Positions 2,527 to 12,176 are shown, counted from the stretch's first letter. The stretch is 12,575 nt of DNA from Candidatus Jordarchaeia archaeon (GCA_029856435.1 JAHQXB010000017.1:1-12575); one strand, 5' to 3'. The notes: generated by a model not told the origin, from the letters alone. Numbers and translations are program-made.

Positions 2527-3744
2527 CTACTTTCTCCCAATCCATCCTATTTCCTTTACTGTTTCTCCTGTTTCAAGAACCTCAATAGCCTTTTTTAATG
2601 CTTCCTTCTGGTCTTGCACCGTAACATCTCTGCCTCCAAGACCAGCTATGAATTCTAACACCTGTGGCCTTTTATCCTCTGTGTATAGAGCTGCCTTGAG
2701 TTCAGATGATGAAGCTCCGCCTTTACCTGGCGAAAGGTTTCTATCTATGACGGAAATAGCCTTAACATTCTTAGCAATCCTGCGAAACTCCTCATCCGGG
2801 AAGGGGCGAAAAACTCTCAATTTAACTGCTCCGACCCTATAACCCTCTTCTCTTAATTCATCAACAGCTACTATAGCTTGGTCAGCCAAGGAGCCCATAC
2901 ATACAATAATTGCATCTGCATCATTGCACTTATATTCTTCAACTAGGCCTCCGTGATATCTGCCGAATCTCTTTTTGAAATCTGAAGCTACCTGTACAAT
3001 TTTCTTTTTGGCGTTTTCTTGGGCCAAGTGCATAAGATACTTAAACTCATAAAACCAATCATCAGGATTTTGTAAATTTCCGTGGGTTATCGGATTATCA
3101 ATGTCTACTCTTATGTGTGTGGGATTATAAGGTGGCAGGAATGCATCAACCTCCTCTTGTTCTGGAATCTCTACTGGCTGAGAAGTGTGGCTAATAGTAA
3201 ACCCCTCGTAACAAACCATAACGGGCAAAAGAACTTCTTCATCTTCCGCAATTTTATATGCCTGTATTATTGAATCAAACGCATCTTGATGGTTAGCACA
3301 GTAAATTTGTAACCAGCCAGTGTCTCTCTGAGAAACTGAATCACCATGGTCAGCCCAAATGTTCCAAGGCGGCCCCAAAGCCCTGTTAACTATAGCCATA
3401 ACAATTGGTAAACGTGAAGCCGCCGCCCAATGAACCATCTCATGCATATAAGCCAAACCATGAGCAGAGGTCGCAGTAAACGTTCTCACCCCTGTTAGAG
3501 ATGCGCCAATACAAGCAGCCAAAGCAGAATGCTCAGACTCTACCCGCACAAATCTAGCATTTAACTCTCCACTCTCAACCAAATCCGATAATTTTTCCAC
3601 AACACCTGTTTGCGGCGTTAATATCCCCAAACAAGAAGATAATCCTGCTCAGATTGGATAAGCCGCAATAACCGCGGGTCTACACAAAGCAGCCGCATAT
3701 GCAGCCGCATAATTCCCCGTCGTTATTACAGTCTTCGCCATCAT
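2527..3744 (-). CDS. vorA: 2-oxoacid:ferredoxin oxidoreductase alpha subunit, VOR-like; two exons (3744..3654 and 3620..2527), 394 aa after splicing (393 aa if started at 3741)
   Basis: GGAGG precedes ATG ATG (3744/3741), which overlap the upstream TGA. The N-terminus [29 protein letters not shown] is in frame with [10 protein letters not shown]...VESEHSA...VNRALGPPW...SQRDTGW...RPFP...[19 protein letters not shown] and PPWxxWxD resemble Thermococcales VorA (from recall). The ORF-track start at 3630 lies inside the intron. Substrate specificity is inferred. Confidence 0.88.
3621..3653 (-). other. 33-nt bulge-helix-bulge intron in the vorA mRNA
   Basis: mRNA-sense sequence UCUGAGCAGGAUUAUCUUCUUGUUUGGGGAUAU, with an in-frame UGA at 3651-3649. 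Central helix AUCC/GGAU, 3-nt bulges AAU and AUU on opposite strands, 10-bp intron helix, and 9-bp exon helix with one bulged C. Cutting after the second nucleotide of each bulge gives CCA A|UA ACG CCG = P-I-T-P. Confidence 0.88.
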
Positions 3745-4670
3745 GATTCCTCCTTTTCTCTAACCAAACGCATACTTTTCTTAGGACAAATAGATACACA
3801 TATACCACAGCCTTTACAGTAGGTGTAGTCAATCACAGGATACCCCTCTTCGTCAACCGTCACCACATTCTCTGGGCAGAACATCCAGCACGAAAGACAT
3901 TTTGAACAGGTTTCCCGATCGTAAACTGGTTTGAAGACTCTCCACTCGCCAGTGATTCCCATACTTGCCTTCTCTGGTTTAGAAATGGGTATCGGTGTCA
4001 AATCCTTCCATGTTCGGAACTGGGAAACTCTTTCACGCTTGCAGACAGGCATGTTGCCATCAAGGTATAGTTCCCCTGGCACCACTAGTTCTATAGTTTT
4101 TTCAAAAGCCACCTCGACGGCTCTAAGATTTTTCTCGTCTTGCTTGCCACTAAATGTATCACTTAGAGCCTCCAAGACAGAATCTAAACTGATTAGACCT
4201 GTGGCTTTAGCAAAAGCACCCAGCATGGGAGTGGCAGAAAGTGCTAACCCCGCTACTTCTAAACCGAACTCGATGGAAATACTGGTAGCATCTACAGTAA
4301 AAACTTTAGCATTCTTGGGAAGTTTACCGATCTTACTGAAAATATCTGAGTTTCCCGGAGTGTTAATTACCAGGGTGCCACCAGCCTTCAAACCGTCTGT
4401 AATGTTGACCAGACCGGTCTCAAAAAGACTAAAATCAACTACAACAACAATATCTGGAGTGTACACATTGGAATGAATCCGAACTGGCTCCTTTGAAAAT
4501 CTTGTGAATGCCACCACGGGAGCACCACGCCGCTCCGCACCGAAAAATGGGAGTGACTGGACGCCCTTAAAGCCTTCGTGGAATGCTGCCTCAGCCAATA
4601 TTCTAGCGGCTGTAACTGTTCCAGCGCCGCCTCTTCCATGCCACCGGATCTCATATACTTTAGCTGGCAT
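3741..4670 (-). CDS. Fused gamma-delta subunit of 2-oxoacid:ferredoxin oxidoreductase, 309 aa
   Basis: Likely ATG at 4670 after GGAGGTG; the ORF-track extension to 4730 is unsupported. Gamma motifs [11 protein letters not shown] and [10 protein letters not shown]. Delta motifs [21 protein letters not shown] and [12 protein letters not shown] (2x[4Fe-4S]). Confidence 0.92.
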
Positions 4671-4971
4671 TTGCGCACCTCCAAAATGAGGTCTCCTTAT
4701 CAGATTATTTGGTTTACTAGCTTTACACAAACCAGTCCTTAAAACAGTTTTGGGTAATAAAATTTAACTAGTGTAAAAGAATACAAAACAGTATTACAAC
4801 TTAAAAGTTACGCATATAAACTGTAAAACAGAATATGTAATTCTCGTTACGCACTAACTTTTTAAGTAAAAACTCTTTTGTTTTTTACAACTTTCAAAAA
4901 TTTTCATACGCTTCTGCGTTTTAGAAAGTAGGAAAAAAGTTTTTCATGGCAAAATAAGAGGGAGCAAAAAT
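4671..4971. promoter_or_regulatory. Divergent promoter region between the gamma-delta/alpha genes and the beta gene
   Basis: AT-rich 301-bp gap between divergent starts. Contains TATA-like TATAAA (4815-4820), near-palindrome TGTAA-TTCTCG-TTACG (4836-4851) and direct repeat GTTACGCA (4807-4814, 4846-4853). The individual promoter elements are not resolved. Confidence 0.5.
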
Positions 4972-5883
4972 ATGTCAATAAAAGCATTACGCTCTGAAGC
5001 ACCTGAAGAATATTGGTTACCGGGAAATTCTTCGTGCCAAGGCTGCGGCTCAACACTTGCCTTAAGATGGGTCTTGAAGGCGTTAGGCAAAAAAACTGTT
5101 ATGGTTGTACCCGCATCATGCGCAAATGTTTATGTGGGATGGTGGCCTCGCTCATCTGCAAGTGTAAACTACTTTGACATGGCATTCGCCGCCGGTGGAT
5201 CCGTTGCCTCTGGAATAGTAGCCGCTCTGGATTACCTAAACAAAAAGGATATAAACGTAGTTGCATGGGTGGGCGATGGAGGAACAACAGATATTGGAAT
5301 CCAGGCATTGAGTGGCGCTGCTGAGAGGGGCACTAATTTCATTTATATTTGCTATGATAATGAGGCGTACATGAATACTGGTACTCAGAGAAGTAGTAGT
5401 ACTCCCTTGGGTGCTTGGACTACTACAACGCCTTTTGGTAAGGGACAGCAGAAAAAGAATGTTCCTATGATTATGGCAGCGCATAATATTCCTTATGTTG
5501 CAACTGCGTGCTCCAGTTATCCAAAAGATCTATATGAGAAGATAAAGAAGGCTAAGGACATAGAGGGCACTAAGTATATTCACATTTTGGCTCCCTGCCC
5601 CCCTGGTTGGCGTTTTGATACAGAGTTAACGGTGGAGATCGGCAAGTTAGCGGTGGAAACTGGTATGTGGGCTCTTTACGAGGTTGAGAATGGTGTATTC
5701 AGGTTAAGCAGTCCCAGCAAGCGGGTGATGGACCCGTCGAAGAGAAAGCCGATACAAGAATACATTAAGCTTCAAGGTAGGTTCAAGGGAATTACAGATG
5801 AGCAAATCCGAGAGCTTAAGAATTATGTCGACAGACAGTGGGAAAGGTACGGCAAAATGGAGGAAGGCTGCCCCGTATTTTAG
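4972..5883 (+). CDS. vorB: 2-oxoacid:ferredoxin oxidoreductase beta subunit (TPP-binding), VOR-like, 303 aa
   Basis: Cluster ligands CQGC, PASC and PCP. TPP motif GDGGTTDIG...YDNEAYMNTG. LRWVLKALGKKT and VVAWVGDGGT resemble Thermococcales VorB more than PorB (from recall). Confidence 0.9.
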   Translation: MSIKALRSEAPEEYWLPGNSSCQGCGSTLALRWVLKALGKKTVMVVPASCANVYVGWWPRSSASVNYFDMAFAAGGSVASGIVAALDYLNKKDINVVAWVGDGGTTDIGIQALSGAAERGTNFIYICYDNEAYMNTGTQRSSSTPLGAWTTTTPFGKGQQKKNVPMIMAAHNIPYVATACSSYPKDLYEKIKKAKDIEGTKYIHILAPCPPGWRFDTELTVEIGKLAVETGMWALYEVENGVFRLSSPSKRVMDPSKRKPIQEYIKLQGRFKGITDEQIRELKNYVDRQWERYGKMEEGCPVF

Positions 5884-6678: not shown

Positions 6679-7617
6679 TTATACTTCAATGCTTTGGGTC
6701 AATTTTTCTAGAGCAATTAGCTCCTGCCATTTTTTATCAACGTAGTCTTGGATTTCCTGTATCATTTTGTCCTGGCGTTTTGGTTTGAAGAGATGTCTGA
6801 ATTTGCCCTGATATTTTAGGTATTCTTCTACGGGTCTCTTTTTAACAATATTTTTCGTTATTTTGTACTTTCCATTTTCCACTTCATACAGCGGCCAGTA
6901 GCGGGTAAGCACAGCCTCTCTAGCAACCTCTATTGTTAAGTCGGACTCAGTTCTCCAACCTCTAGGACATGTAGCCAAAATTAAAAGGAAGGAAGGCCCC
7001 TCAACCGAAACCGCCTTACGAACCTTTCTTATCAGATCCATTGGATACGCAGGGCTCGCAGTAGCTGCATAAGGGATTTCATGCGCCACAACAATTTTCA
7101 TAAGGTCCTTCTGAAAACGAACCTTACCTGGAACCACCTTACCAGCGGGGCTAGTAGTTGTCCATCCAAACTTGGGAGTGGCTCCACTCTGTTGAATACC
7201 TGTATTCATGTAAGCTTCGTTAGAGTAGCAGATATATGTAAACTTATGGCCCCTCTCTAAAGCTCCGGAAAGCGCCTGCAACCCAATATCATAGGTACCT
7301 CCATCGCCTGCGATGGCTATTATGGGGTTATCTGTTTTTGGGATTTTGCCTTTCCTTTGTAATACTTTTAGTCCTGCTTCTACACCTGCTGCAGTAGCAG
7401 CGGTGCACTCGAATGCAGTGTGTATCCAAGGCACACTCCAAGCAGTGTAGGGGTAGGGGGTGGTCGCTACTTCAACACAGTTAGTGGCATTAACGATTAT
7501 GGGTGGTTTATCAAGGGCGATAAATACTTGTCTTAGGGCTATTGCAGCTCCACAGCCTGAGCACATCCTGTGACCAGGGGTCAAGTATTCTCGTGCGAGT
7601 AAACTTTTCAGAGACAT
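6679..7617 (-). CDS. porB: Pyruvate:ferredoxin oxidoreductase-like beta subunit, 312 aa
   Basis: PGHRMCSGC, NATNCVEV...YPYTAW..PWIH.AFE, GDGGTYDIG, YSNEAYMNTG and TCPRGW. GGAGG RBS lies in the end of porA. Confidence 0.92.
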   Translation of the reverse strand: MSLKSLLAREYLTPGHRMCSGCGAAIALRQVFIALDKPPIIVNATNCVEVATTPYPYTAWSVPWIHTAFECTAATAAGVEAGLKVLQRKGKIPKTDNPIIAIAGDGGTYDIGLQALSGALERGHKFTYICYSNEAYMNTGIQQSGATPKFGWTTTSPAGKVVPGKVRFQKDLMKIVVAHEIPYAATASPAYPMDLIRKVRKAVSVEGPSFLLILATCPRGWRTESDLTIEVAREAVLTRYWPLYEVENGKYKITKNIVKKRPVEEYLKYQGKFRHLFKPKRQDKMIQEIQDYVDKKWQELIALEKLTQSIEV

Positions 7618-7620
7618 TTT

Positions 7621-8832
7621 TTATCCTCCATCATATGTTACATTTATACATCCAGGCCCTCTGCAGCCTACGACTCTGTAAACTGCTTCGATTTTGTCTT
7701 CTCGCGCGGCTTTGAGAAGTATTTCGACGACCTTTTCTAAATGTTCAATTCTGGTGTCTCTTCCTCCAAGACCCGTGGGGAATCCCATAACGTGTGGCCG
7801 GTTTCTAAGTTCGTATAACGCAGATCTTACTTCCATACTTAGGGCCCCGCCCATTGCTCCAAAACTAATGTTTCGGTCTATAACTCCCACGACTTTTATA
7901 TCTTTTAAGGCCTCTTGTAGATCATCTTTCGGGAAGGGTCGGAACACACGGAGTTTTACTAAGCCCACTTTTTTTCCGCTTTTTCGTAGTTTGTATACTG
8001 TCTCCTGAGCCGTCCCCGCCAGCGAACCTATAGCTAGTAATGCGACTTCTGCGTCTTCCATTTGATATGACGAAATAATTTCATAATTTGTGTTGAATCT
8101 GTTATTAAAATCATCAAAGACCTCTTGGATAATTTTTAGGGAATTTTGTGTGGCTACTTCTTGTTGCACTTTGATTTCAGGATAGTATTCAGGCACTCCA
8201 ACACAACCAACCGTAACTGGTTTTTCCACACTTATTGGAAACTGCATTTTTCGAGGGGGTAGGAAATCGTCTATGTCTTTTTGTTCTAGGAGTTCTACTC
8301 CCTCGGTTGCATGACTCACAACAAAGCCATCGTGACAGGACATCACGGGCAGCTGAACATCTTTATCCTCTGCTATTTTGAATGCTTGCATAATAGTGTG
8401 ATATGATTCTTGGGCGTTTTGGTTGTAGATTTGTATCCATCCCGAGTCTCTGACCCCCATAGTGTCACTCATATCATTCCAGATGTTTAGGGGGCTATTA
8501 AGTGCCCTATTAGATACTGCCATGACTATTGGTAGTCTAAAGGAAGAGGCAACAAATAACATTTCGAACATGAGAGCAATACCTTGGGAGGCTGAGGCGG
8601 TGAATACCCTAGCACCAGAGAGAGAGGCTCCGATACATGCAGCCATCGCGGAATGTTCGGATTCTGCAGCTATGAGTTCAGCGTCGATTTCGCCATCGGC
8701 GTAAAACTGTGCTAGTTCTTCGACAATTTGTGTTTGGGGAGTTATAGGATACATAGCTATTACATCTGGGTTACACTGTTTTACCGCGTGTGCCACAGCC
8801 TCATTGCCAGTTAATGCGACAAGTTTTCCCAT
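7621..8832 (-). CDS. porA: Pyruvate:ferredoxin oxidoreductase-like alpha subunit, 403 aa, uninterrupted
   Basis: GNEAVAHA, intact [28 protein letters not shown] and GLGGRD. Confidence 0.93.
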   Translation of the reverse strand: MGKLVALTGNEAVAHAVKQCNPDVIAMYPITPQTQIVEELAQFYADGEIDAELIAAESEHSAMAACIGASLSGARVFTASASQGIALMFEMLFVASSFRLPIVMAVSNRALNSPLNIWNDMSDTMGVRDSGWIQIYNQNAQESYHTIMQAFKIAEDKDVQLPVMSCHDGFVVSHATEGVELLEQKDIDDFLPPRKMQFPISVEKPVTVGCVGVPEYYPEIKVQQEVATQNSLKIIQEVFDDFNNRFNTNYEIISSYQMEDAEVALLAIGSLAGTAQETVYKLRKSGKKVGLVKLRVFRPFPKDDLQEALKDIKVVGVIDRNISFGAMGGALSMEVRSALYELRNRPHVMGFPTGLGGRDTRIEHLEKVVEILLKAAREDKIEAVYRVVGCRGPGCINVTYDGG

Positions 8833-8833
8833 T

Positions 8834-9124
8834 CTACTCTTCCTCCATTTCTATTGCTTTTGCAGGACACTCCTTTGAGCATATTCCGCACCCTTTACAG
8901 TAAAAGTAATTAATTTTTACTCCTTTTTCTTCTCTTTCTATTGCTCCTTCAGGGCAGTAAATCCAGCATAGGAGACAGTTGTTGCATTTGCCTTCTTTTA
9001 TTACTGGTTTTTTTCCTTCTCTCCAGTCACCGGTTCTGTATTCCCTAGCGTTGCCCGGTTCAGTAATGTATCCTCCTATGGGGAGTTCATTCCAAGCTAA
9101 GAGTTTCTTTTTGGATTTACTCAA
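8834..9124 (-). CDS. porD: Pyruvate:ferredoxin oxidoreductase-like delta subunit (2x[4Fe-4S]), 96 aa
   Basis: TGDWR..KP, CNNCLLCWIYCP and CKGCGICSKECP. TTG start after GGAGGT overlaps the porG stop (TTGA). Confidence 0.93.
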   Translation of the reverse strand: MSKSKKKLLAWNELPIGGYITEPGNAREYRTGDWREGKKPVIKEGKCNNCLLCWIYCPEGAIEREEKGVKINYFYCKGCGICSKECPAKAIEMEEE

Positions 9125-9678
9125 CTTATTTTAACCTCCTTGTATGCTCTCATTATCGCATCTATGTTTTTTTCTGCTAAATCTTGTTCGAACATTTCTC
9201 TAGTTATTTTGTTAATAGTATCTAAACTTACGACTCCGGTTGCTTTTGCTAAGGCTCCTAAGATTGGCGTATTGGTTATAGCTACACCTAGGGTTTCCAG
9301 AGCAATTTTGGTTGCGTTAACTGTTGCCACTTTGTTATTAACTTTTAACTCAGATTTTAATTCGTCTGGGCTTCTATCGATGTTCACAATTATGATTCCG
9401 TCCTTCTTCAGTCCCTCCGTAACATTTTCAACCTTTATTAATGTTGGATCTAGTACAACGACGATATCTGGTTCGTAAATCTGAGATCTGCTGAGTATTG
9501 GTTTGTTACTTATCTTGGCGAATGCCTTTATTGGCGCCCCTTTTCTCTCTGCTCCGAATGCCGGGAACGACTGAACGTTTTTCCCTTCCTTTAAAGCAGC
9601 CTCTGCAACTAGTCTACTAGCGGTCACAACGCCTTGTCCTCCTCTTCCGTGGAATCTAATTTCTACAATATCCTTCAA
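9121..9678 (-). CDS. porG: Pyruvate:ferredoxin oxidoreductase-like gamma subunit, 185 aa
   Basis: EIRFHGRGGQGVVT, FGAERKGAP and NTPILGAL. TTG start after GGAGG. Confidence 0.93.
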   Translation of the reverse strand: MKDIVEIRFHGRGGQGVVTASRLVAEAALKEGKNVQSFPAFGAERKGAPIKAFAKISNKPILSRSQIYEPDIVVVLDPTLIKVENVTEGLKKDGIIIVNIDRSPDELKSELKVNNKVATVNATKIALETLGVAITNTPILGALAKATGVVSLDTINKITREMFEQDLAEKNIDAIMRAYKEVKIS

Positions 9679-10337: not shown

Positions 10338-12176
10338 TTATAAAATGAATAGTAAATATTGGAGTATTATATTCAGTAGGGCAGCTGAGACTAGTATTAT
10401 AAGTGATTTTTTTGCGGTTGAGACAGATTTTACTATTTGGGTTGTTAAGAGGGCCATTTGTTTTTCTCCAACGATTTTTATTTTTTCCACTTTTTTTATA
10501 TTGTAAGAGATTTTTACTGGTTTGAGGTTTGTAAGTGCTTCTTTTGTCATGTTGACTATCATTGTTATCAGTTTTTTGTGGTCTCCAATTTGGCCTACAG
10601 CTTGGTAGCCTTTAGGGTCTAGTGATACCGCGTTTACAATGTGGGTGTCGCTCGTCATCACTTCTGCTTCGTCGACTCCAATTTTTTTGACGCTGCCAAT
10701 TATCTTTTCTCTTAGTCCTGGAATCATGTTGTTTCCATCAATTATAATATATGCAGCTTTCTGCCCCTTGACTTCTACAACGTGAACTGTAACGCCGGCA
10801 GGCCCAATGCCCTCCCATTTGTGGAATTCGTCTGGCTTTGATTGAACTGCATGGGCTTTGATTTCTGTGCTCATTTTAGACTTTGCTTTTTTTACTGCCA
10901 TTTTGGCGGCGTAAACCATTTTTTTAGCGGTTTCGCTATTTGGTAAAATGGGGGTTACGACTTCACCGCCACAGTTGTGGGCGTCTATTAGAAAAGAGTC
11001 CTTAATTCCTTCGCTTATGGCCGCTTCTCTTACAAGTTCTCCTAGCTCAGGGCTTATATCATCAAAACTTATGGGGGATAGTGTGACTATTAGCAGTGCA
11101 AGGTCTCCGAAAATTTGGCAACTCATTTTTACTTCGTCTTCCTCGTAGGTAACAAATTGGCTTGCTTTTGATACGAAGTTGGATTGGTCTAAAGAATTCT
11201 CGATGGTTTTTAAAACCTTCTTGATTTCATTCGCGGTGACCAAATTTTGCCCGTGTGTTGAAGGCCCGTGAGCCACTGAAACTATGGCGCCAGTTTTTTC
11301 CTTCATCTCCTTCGCTATTATGTAAGGCATTTCACTACTGCCAACAGTTTTGAATGGTCCCGGATGAATGTTAGGAACCACAAGTACACTATTTAGAAGA
11401 TTCGAGTCTTTGAATAATAGTGTAAGCACCGGAAGGGAGGCTTCTTCCCCAATCTTTTCAAATTTTTCTTCCAGCACATAAGGTTTATTCTCTATCCAAT
11501 CCAAAAGAAAGCCGTATAAAAAGCCTACCCCACTCACCTTTAACATTTTAAGTATAGGTCTATCAACTAACCAGAGGTATGCTAATGCTGCGAAGCCGAA
11601 TACAATCGAAGTAATTGTGAACATTGTTAAAAGTTTTATAACTCCCAGTGAAAAGGTTAATTCCTGAAAAGGCAAAATGGCAATTATACAAAGGAGTGGT
11701 TGGGTTAGAGCTACCATTGAAGATCTAAAGGCGCTAAACTTGCTCATCGCATGGATTACCAAAAATCTTAACATAAATATGAAAGACGCCCCAAATACAA
11801 AAGCAACAGAAACAATGGTGATTCTATTTGCCAAAATAGAGGCTATAGCCCCTACGATGTAGGCTGTGCCTAAAAAAAGCATACAAATGGTGGATAATGC
11901 GTATAATCTTCTTCTGTCCCAAACACTTTCCTCACCCTTCATAATTGGACTCACTATCAAGGTCGACAAAACAATGGGAGTAAACAGCGCAGATACTCCC
12001 TGAATGAATCCTATTATCATGTTAGGTATTAAAGGCATAGAGAGGTAAATAATAAGCCTAATGGTAATACTAATGCATAGGGATGCTGCGAGAGAAAATA
12101 TCAATAATTTTTTCATGGTAGGTAGTCGAAATAGCCACCTGTAGAGCGAAGCAGTTTTTTCCATTTCTGTGCTCAT
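10338..12176 (-). CDS. DUF2070-family membrane protein (N-terminal multi-TM region, soluble His-rich putative hydrolase domain, C-terminal TM)
   Basis: Hydrophobic first ~200 aa. Motifs VPNIHPGPF, AHGPSTH, DAHN and SDTH. ATG at 12176 is better spaced from GGGTGG than the ORF-track TTG at 12182. Family assignment is from recall. Confidence 0.8.
   Translation of the reverse strand: MSTEMEKTASLYRWLFRLPTMKKLLIFSLAASLCISITIRLIIYLSMPLIPNMIIGFIQGVSALFTPIVLSTLIVSPIMKGEESVWDRRRLYALSTICMLFLGTAYIVGAIASILANRITIVSVAFVFGASFIFMLRFLVIHAMSKFSAFRSSMVALTQPLLCIIAILPFQELTFSLGVIKLLTMFTITSIVFGFAALAYLWLVDRPILKMLKVSGVGFLYGFLLDWIENKPYVLEEKFEKIGEEASLPVLTLLFKDSNLLNSVLVVPNIHPGPFKTVGSSEMPYIIAKEMKEKTGAIVSVAHGPSTHGQNLVTANEIKKVLKTIENSLDQSNFVSKASQFVTYEEDEVKMSCQIFGDLALLIVTLSPISFDDISPELGELVREAAISEGIKDSFLIDAHNCGGEVVTPILPNSETAKKMVYAAKMAVKKAKSKMSTEIKAHAVQSKPDEFHKWEGIGPAGVTVHVVEVKGQKAAYIIIDGNNMIPGLREKIIGSVKKIGVDEAEVMTSDTHIVNAVSLDPKGYQAVGQIGDHKKLITMIVNMTKEALTNLKPVKISYNIKKVEKIKIVGEKQMALLTTQIVKSVSTAKKSLIILVSAALLNIILQYLLFIL

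Follow-up and report, generated by a model that had tools for sequence, protein, structure and literature searches.

A conserved tRNA-type intron predicted in the pre-mRNA of a 2-oxoacid:ferredoxin oxidoreductase alpha subunit in an Asgard archaeal genus

Introduction

The locus described here raises the question of how an enzyme could be made from a gene whose reading frame is broken by a stop codon within its YPITP motif. The gene encodes the alpha subunit of a 2-oxoacid:ferredoxin oxidoreductase (OFOR) and lies on the minus strand (3744..2527, with a start at 3744/3741) of a 12,575-nucleotide stretch of an Asgard archaeal genome, the window of this study. A preliminary description of the window had placed a bulge-helix-bulge (BHB) intron in the motif, of the kind that is cut by the tRNA splicing endonuclease EndA and joined by the ligase RtcB. 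The source genome (3.54 Mb in 181 contigs, rated 98% complete) belongs to the Jordarchaeia/'Freyarchaeia' group, and the named genomes that stand closest to it are those of Candidatus Jordarchaeum madagascariense, of 'Jordarchaeia' MAGs and of 'Freyarchaeia-1' (closed chromosome CP147778.1).

The precedent for such an intron is the BHB intron of crenarchaeal cbf5 pre-mRNA (Watanabe 2002; Yoshinari 2006; Yokobori 2009, PMC2738675), and introns in protein genes other than cbf5 have merely been predicted (PMC2738675). A full-text literature search up to 2025 found archaeal pre-mRNA splicing cited for cbf5 only and returned nothing on mRNA introns in Asgard archaea.

Results

The interrupted gene and its neighbours

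Read on the minus strand, the OFOR alpha gene runs ATG ATG GCG ... GCG GCT TAT CCA ATC TGA ... GGG ATA TTA ACG CCG CAA. The in-frame TGA (3651-3649) ends the unspliced frame after 31 aa, the length given in the preliminary description. Beyond it the frame reopens and continues for 363 residues that carry POR_N and PFOR_II domains (PF01855, E=2.8e-65; PF17147, E=3.3e-31). Exon 1 (3654..3744, minus; 31 codons from the first ATG) ends one base into the Ile codon of YPITP, and exon 2 (2527..3620, minus), which holds both domains, supplies the UA of that codon, then TPQT and the remainder up to the stop. The start of exon 1 overlaps the stop of the upstream gene (ATGA), which encodes a gamma-delta fusion subunit with POR and 4Fe-4S domains (3741..4730, minus) in the same transcription unit. 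A beta subunit with a TPP-binding domain (4972..5883, plus) is divergently placed and is a conserved neighbour in relatives. The assignment of the host gene as OFOR alpha holds by its domains, by its partner gamma/delta and beta genes and by the YPITP motif that appears once the insert is removed; the JGI label on relatives is '2-oxoisovalerate'.

The window also holds a paralogous alpha subunit (7621..8832, minus) within a classical gamma-delta-alpha-beta operon (6679-9678). This copy is uninterrupted; as reported earlier it reads MYPITPQT with ACT CCC, the motif codons being TAT CCT ATA ACT CCC. The two alpha subunits are about 46% identical.

Anatomy and predicted fold of the insert

Removal of the 33 nt at 3653..3621 (minus) leaves CCA AUA ACG CCG, which encodes YPITP, exactly the excision and junction that had been predicted; U3653 and U3620 are identical and removal of 3652..3620 would give the same product. 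The insert consists of a U, a 10-bp hairpin, GGAU and AU, and contains the TGA. The 5' strand of the motif (3656..3668, minus) lies inside the codons for Ile-Ala-Ala-Tyr-Pro and comprises UUGCGGC (3668-3662) and UU (3661-3660) of the exon helix followed by AUCC (3659-3656) of the central helix. The 3' strand (3610..3626, minus) comprises GGAU (3626-3623), the bulge AU^U (3622-3620) and AA(C)GCCGCAA (3619-3610), of which AA (3619-3618) and GCCGCAA (3616-3610) complete an exon helix of 2+7 bp, with C3617 bulged. AUCC and GGAU form the 4-bp central helix, and the 3-nt bulges AA^U (3655-3653) and AU^U stand on opposite strands. The intron helix pairs CUGAGCAGGA (3652-3643) with UCUUGUUUGG (3636-3627) over 10 bp, four of them G-U, and is closed by the loop UUAUCU. 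Every element listed in the preliminary description, and the frame, was found in the sequence where it had been placed.

The minimum-energy fold computed with ViennaRNA contains all three helices, exon, central and 10-bp intron (fold z-score -3.2). Compared with the canonical two-bulge drawing, which lies only 1.2 kcal/mol above it (-23.6 vs -24.8), this fold has one extra central-helix pair and, on the 3' side, a loop of 5 nt, so that the 3' bulge is displaced. When the region was shuffled 400 times with its dinucleotides preserved, 17 of the shuffles contained a strict BHB of equal score; the fold alone is therefore only modestly unusual and we claim no significance for it by itself. The case rests not on fold statistics but on the agreement, across length variants, between the cuts that the structure predicts and the junction that restores the protein.

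No Rfam match was found in the window at E<=0.1. A group I or group II intron, an intein and a known structured RNA were ruled out, as inserts of 28-33 nt are far too short and the window has no Rfam match. By eye, the 3' arm of the intron, CUUGUUUG, can also pair with CAAACAGG of exon 2 (3604-3636, minus; eight pairs including one G-U). The additional pairing may represent an alternative fold, or else a relic of an inverted duplication from which the intron arose.

Length variants of the insert and its absence from outgroups

Variants were gathered from genomes of the genus, from metagenome contigs and from contigs located via public protein calls. Twelve distinct versions of the insert, measuring 28, 29, 30 or 33 nt, occupy the identical site in independent assemblies of relatives and metagenomes. 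When each bulge is cut behind its second nucleotide, as the BHB rule prescribes, all 12 yield an intact gene of 393-394 aa with AAYPITPQT. The predicted spliced junction is GCGGCTTATCCAA|TAACGCCGCAAAC in the source genome, and the closed chromosome CP147778.1 carries a 28-nt insert (1,589,354-1,589,381, minus) with the predicted junction GCTTATCCAA to TAACGCCGCAG. That the cut sites coincide with the sole protein-restoring junction, repeatedly and in 12 variants of differing length, is far beyond chance.

In the 28- and 29-nt variants the frame is shifted and exon 1 reads YPN followed by a stop; the Ile codon arises only when A and UA are joined at the junction. This excludes readthrough, ribosome hopping and a two-polypeptide arrangement as ways of making YPITP. 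Of the five other species in the genus, four have a frame interrupted by a stop 10-14 codons upstream of TPQT; the contig of the fifth (G001) ends before the insert site. In the sister family (G006-G010) and in all farther orthologs (about 20) the frame is full-length, YPITPQT is uninterrupted and the insert is precisely absent.

Selection on the protein and on the RNA

Pairwise dN/dS of OFOR alpha was 0.02-0.07, with synonymous sites saturated between species, and exon 1 alone showed, for example, 16 synonymous versus 2 non-synonymous differences from variant L193. Purifying selection is thus strong: the gene is in use, with exon 1 translated in its own frame. At the level of the RNA, 15 of 123 fourfold sites (12%) are invariant gene-wide across 12 sequences, and the third positions of the exon helix are frozen. 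The preliminary description had pointed out that the GC-rich codons GCG GCU and ACG CCG build this helix; GCG, GCT and CCG proved invariant, as is GCG GCT TAT, in 12 of 12 variants, and the 11-base run GCGGCTTATCC ties as the longest invariant run in the gene. These frozen synonymous sites point to selection on the RNA helix. Over the 12 variants 95.6% of the cells of the structure are paired, compared with 41-54% when the partners are slid, and the value is similar for the central helix (97.9%), the exon helix (94.4%) and the intron helix (95.8%); in variant L183 the central helix is interrupted by an A.G mismatch. It had been suggested that relatives would be informative both for presence or absence of the insert and for compensatory changes. 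The first part is borne out by the 12 variants and by the outgroups that lack the insert. The second is not: two pairs show GU, AU and GC among the variants, but no pair in the 12 shows a double change relative to its commonest form and pair counts do not exceed those of column shuffles, and we therefore do not claim covariation as proof.

Protein databases were searched for the product. With exon 2 as the query, neither a spliced form nor an uninterrupted near-identical protein was found among 5.8 billion protein clusters. No spliced product occurred among all 44 members of the six closest clusters, every one of which is truncated or frame-shifted, so the expectation that annotation would miscall this gene was correct for 44 of 44 public calls. 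A 61-aa peptide spanning the junction matched longer proteins at 75% identity at best, and all of these were other orthologs.

Splicing enzymes and tRNA genes

The source genome encodes two EndA subunits, one catalytic and one non-catalytic, on contigs C104 and C64. The alpha subunit aligns end to end without gaps to the catalytic subunit of Aeropyrum pernix (3P1Z_B, E=3e-45), the alignment spanning the lineage-specific loop, and has the catalytic Tyr, His and Lys; the second copy, beta, lacks the catalytic His. Asgard archaea possess the alpha-beta EndA that carries the L1 loop, the sole type able to cut relaxed motifs (PMC5829648). The subunit type, which had been singled out as informative, is thus alpha-beta with the broad-specificity loop, and a single RtcB gene (match of 579 bits) accompanies it.

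Between 92 and 95% of the tRNA genes of Freyarchaeia and Atabeyarchaeia bear introns, many at non-canonical positions (PMC11291895). Only three tRNA genes were called by aragorn in the 3.54-Mb source genome, and hence there was no set of tRNA introns with which to compare the bulges. This low number fits a disruption of tRNA genes by multiple or non-canonical introns, which the literature describes for the lineage.

Inserts of the same kind in other genes

The 2,172 ORFs of a sister-family genome (G006, 2.14 Mb) were searched against the source genome for gaps and stop-containing inserts. At least nine other protein genes contain the same kind of insert, for which the BHB cutting rule restores an ortholog-like sequence; a scan for further BHB-flanked inserts, proposed in the preliminary description, was therefore productive.

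One of these genes is the sole rtcB. It reads LPD T*RESPPMRE AHQGYGFPIGG, and removal of a stop-containing 30-nt insert (contig C93, 1547-1576, minus; central helix CCCG/CGGG, bulge AC^A) restores LPD|AHQGYG. The insert is kept in genomes of the same genus (29 nt in the closed genome) and absent in the sister family and beyond. As the only rtcB gene appears to need the same splicing, a bootstrapping question arises that counts against the proposal, since the ligase message would require its own product. Another is cbf5, in which a 31-nt insert (contig C73, 22783-22813, minus; CACU/AGUG, bulges AG^A and AA^A) splits the codon of the catalytic Asp as G|AU. Its position is that of the published crenarchaeal cbf5 intron (PMC2738675), which could mean either that the intron is ancient and shared or that the site has gained one repeatedly.

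Seven further genes were compared with genome G006 only. Restored junctions are TKWE|FDN in ahcY (contig C81, 48230-48259; 30 nt), CYTCQE|RCP in a 4Fe-4S (HdrC-like) protein (contig C49, 341-370; 30 nt), EPSG|LFHLG in a class-I Trp/Tyr-type tRNA synthetase (contig C81, 49794-49823; 30 nt) and FLLFGG|KGGVGKT in an ArsA/Get3-type ATPase (contig C81, 18336-18364, minus; 29 nt). The remainder are a Roadblock/LC7 protein (contig C5, 19743-19773, minus; 31 nt), MoaE (contig C50, 4896-4921; 26 nt) and an FBP aldolase/phosphatase, FBPase_3 (contig C137, 12171-12240), whose 70-nt insert is a weaker fit to the rule. Most of the seven inserts lie within highly conserved motifs (P-loop, Fe-S cysteine motif, HIGH-region), and the other interrupted genes include mini-exons of 13 to 19 aa and a split P-loop.

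Three stop-containing inserts relative to G006 orthologs (C71 ~9326-9355, C32 ~11151-11174 and C169 ~5210-5250) fail the strict rule of a 4-bp helix and 3-nt bulges whose junction restores the frame; they may represent relaxed motifs, different boundaries or something else. Three genes appear to be shifted by +1 or -2 nt relative to their G006 orthologs (C109 ~12102, C180 ~2534 and C138 ~32274), which could reflect frameshifts, sequencing errors or very short inserts. In an HdrA-like gene (contig C99, 663-2984), alignment with the G006 ortholog places a Cys opposite each of four in-frame TGA codons; these are probably selenocysteine codons and not introns.

Discussion

We propose, with a probability of about 0.9, that the insert is a conserved BHB (tRNA-type) intron of the OFOR alpha pre-mRNA, gained in the ancestor of the genus. 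Its anatomy, its conservation, selection on both exons, its precise pattern of presence and absence and the enzymes encoded are observed, whereas cleavage and ligation, like any regulatory use, are inferred. The transcript would fold with base pairs both between the codons of the two exons and between exon and intron, leaving two 3-nt bulges with a 4-bp helix between them. The heteromeric EndA would then cut past the second base of each bulge and RtcB would ligate the exons, completing the Ile codon as A|UA and with it the motif YPITP, while a 33-nt intron would be set free, probably as a circle. An unspliced message would stop two codons past the 5' cut and give a 31-aa peptide at most, and so the amount of enzyme would depend on splicing.

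Bypassing, readthrough, a pseudogene, a split gene and an artefact were each weighed against this proposal and rejected. A split gene, in which the 31-aa exon-1 peptide and a separately initiated protein of ~360 aa assemble without RNA splicing, would also account for purifying selection on both parts, and gene callers do find downstream start codons. However, no start for the second part is conserved, and the callers pick a TTG in the intron, a GTG at VEKL with loss of TPQTGV, or a frame-shifted read-through. The first peptide of the 28/29-nt variants would end in YPN with the invariant Ile encoded nowhere, and the conserved hairpin, the frozen synonymous sites and the same architecture in nine other genes would be left unexplained; we therefore regard a split gene as very unlikely. 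Translational bypassing, a ribosome hop over the insert of the phage T4 gene 60 or yeast mitochondrial 'byps' type, draws on the position of the stop codon directly after the would-be take-off site and on the hairpin that follows, a layout with a superficial resemblance to that of T4 gene 60. Yet matching take-off and landing codons are absent. With the window's insert, a ribosome landing at AUA would make YPILTP and one landing at AUU would be out of frame, and with the 28/29-nt variants the take-off codon would be AAC (Asn), from which YPITP is impossible; a hop is less likely again than two assembling polypeptides.

Decay of a pseudogene made redundant by the intact paralog at 7621-8832 has in its favour that every copy has an in-frame stop or a frameshift and that the intact paralogous operon adjoins. 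The chance of this is slimmer still, given dN/dS values of 0.02-0.07 over saturated synonymous divergence and a conserved exon 1; moreover, alpha subunits of such low identity are not redundant copies. Further disabling mutations in relatives, which the preliminary description had named as a possible objection, did not appear: no second lesion of OFOR alpha exists in any of the 12 lineages. An artefact of assembly or sequencing, an objection raised in the same place, or recoding of the stop (selenocysteine or readthrough) within an in-frame insertion is the least credible account, with a chance close to nil. It could appeal to the window's 33-nt insert being in frame with a TGA, and the source genome appears to use selenocysteine elsewhere, but the 28- and 29-nt versions cannot be read through and no other ortholog has 11 residues inserted into YPITP. 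As to an artefact, the insert recurs in 20 or more independent contigs (NCBI, JGI, ENA and Logan), among them a chromosome checked with long reads (PMC11291895).

In mechanism the proposed OFOR alpha intron is of the cbf5 kind, and its setting is an Asgard genome with many intron-bearing protein genes, the ligase gene included. As with crenarchaeal cbf5, a short intron lies within coding sequence and the BHB is formed partly of exon codons, cleavage separates the second from the third bulge residue, EndA of the host is hetero-oligomeric, there is gain and loss among close lineages and the gene is miscalled by annotation pipelines. It differs in that OFOR alpha is a core energy-metabolism enzyme, of an Asgard phylum, and in that cbf5 is a lone case whereas OFOR alpha is one of at least 10 interrupted protein genes in the genome. 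The non-canonical and multiple pre-tRNA introns of archaea (Thermoproteales; Freyarchaeia/Atabeyarchaeia, PMC11291895) share the motif, presumably the enzymes, and a similar size, and the extreme intron load of tRNA genes occurs in the same lineage as the OFOR alpha host (PMC11291895). Unlike a pre-tRNA, the host RNA here is a translated polycistronic mRNA, in which the reading frame constrains the exon halves of the motif and splicing must compete with ribosomes.

A further parallel is HAC1/XBP1 splicing in eukaryotes, in which a short mRNA intron is removed by proteins only, free of the spliceosome, and the encoded product is altered; joining there is by tRNA ligase or RTCB, the latter in animals, as would be the case here. 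The difference is that Ire1 acts on two stem-loops as a stress-regulated switch, whereas we propose EndA acting on a BHB. Haloferax volcanii also has an EndA substrate located in an mRNA, a BHB that reportedly lies in the 5' UTR, outside coding sequence.

Taking the interrupted genes together, we lean slightly towards a broader reading, that in this Asgard genus the tRNA machinery (EndA and RtcB) routinely splices mRNAs throughout the genome as a layer of gene expression, needed by at least 10 protein genes, typically at their most conserved motifs, with output gated by splicing capacity. If so, the affected genes would span core energy and carbon metabolism (OFOR alpha, FBP aldolase/phosphatase and an HdrC-like Fe-S protein) as well as an aminoacyl-tRNA synthetase, cbf5 and rtcB, enzyme output would be gated through a self-dependent ligase loop (rtcB), and translation of nascent transcripts would have to be restrained, in an organism closely related to eukaryotes. 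The scope of archaeal mRNA splicing, which in the literature searched is one gene, cbf5 in Crenarchaeota, would extend to OFOR alpha and the at least nine others with such inserts. Systematic mis-annotation of such genes as truncated or frame-shifted distorts metabolic reconstructions of Asgard archaea. The locus also makes a long-standing question directly testable, namely how ribosomes are kept from unspliced messages in a cell that lacks a nucleus, and offers a natural system for the origin of introns and their settlement in conserved coding sites.

Finally, a gene for a Clp1-family polynucleotide kinase (1186-2469, plus; CLP1_P, E=3.9e-37) is convergent to OFOR alpha at a distance of 58 nt, and is a conserved neighbour in every relative whose fetched contig extended to that side. 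Eukaryotic Clp1 associates with the tRNA splicing endonuclease. The adjacency of this gene to the intron-bearing OFOR alpha may be a coincidence.
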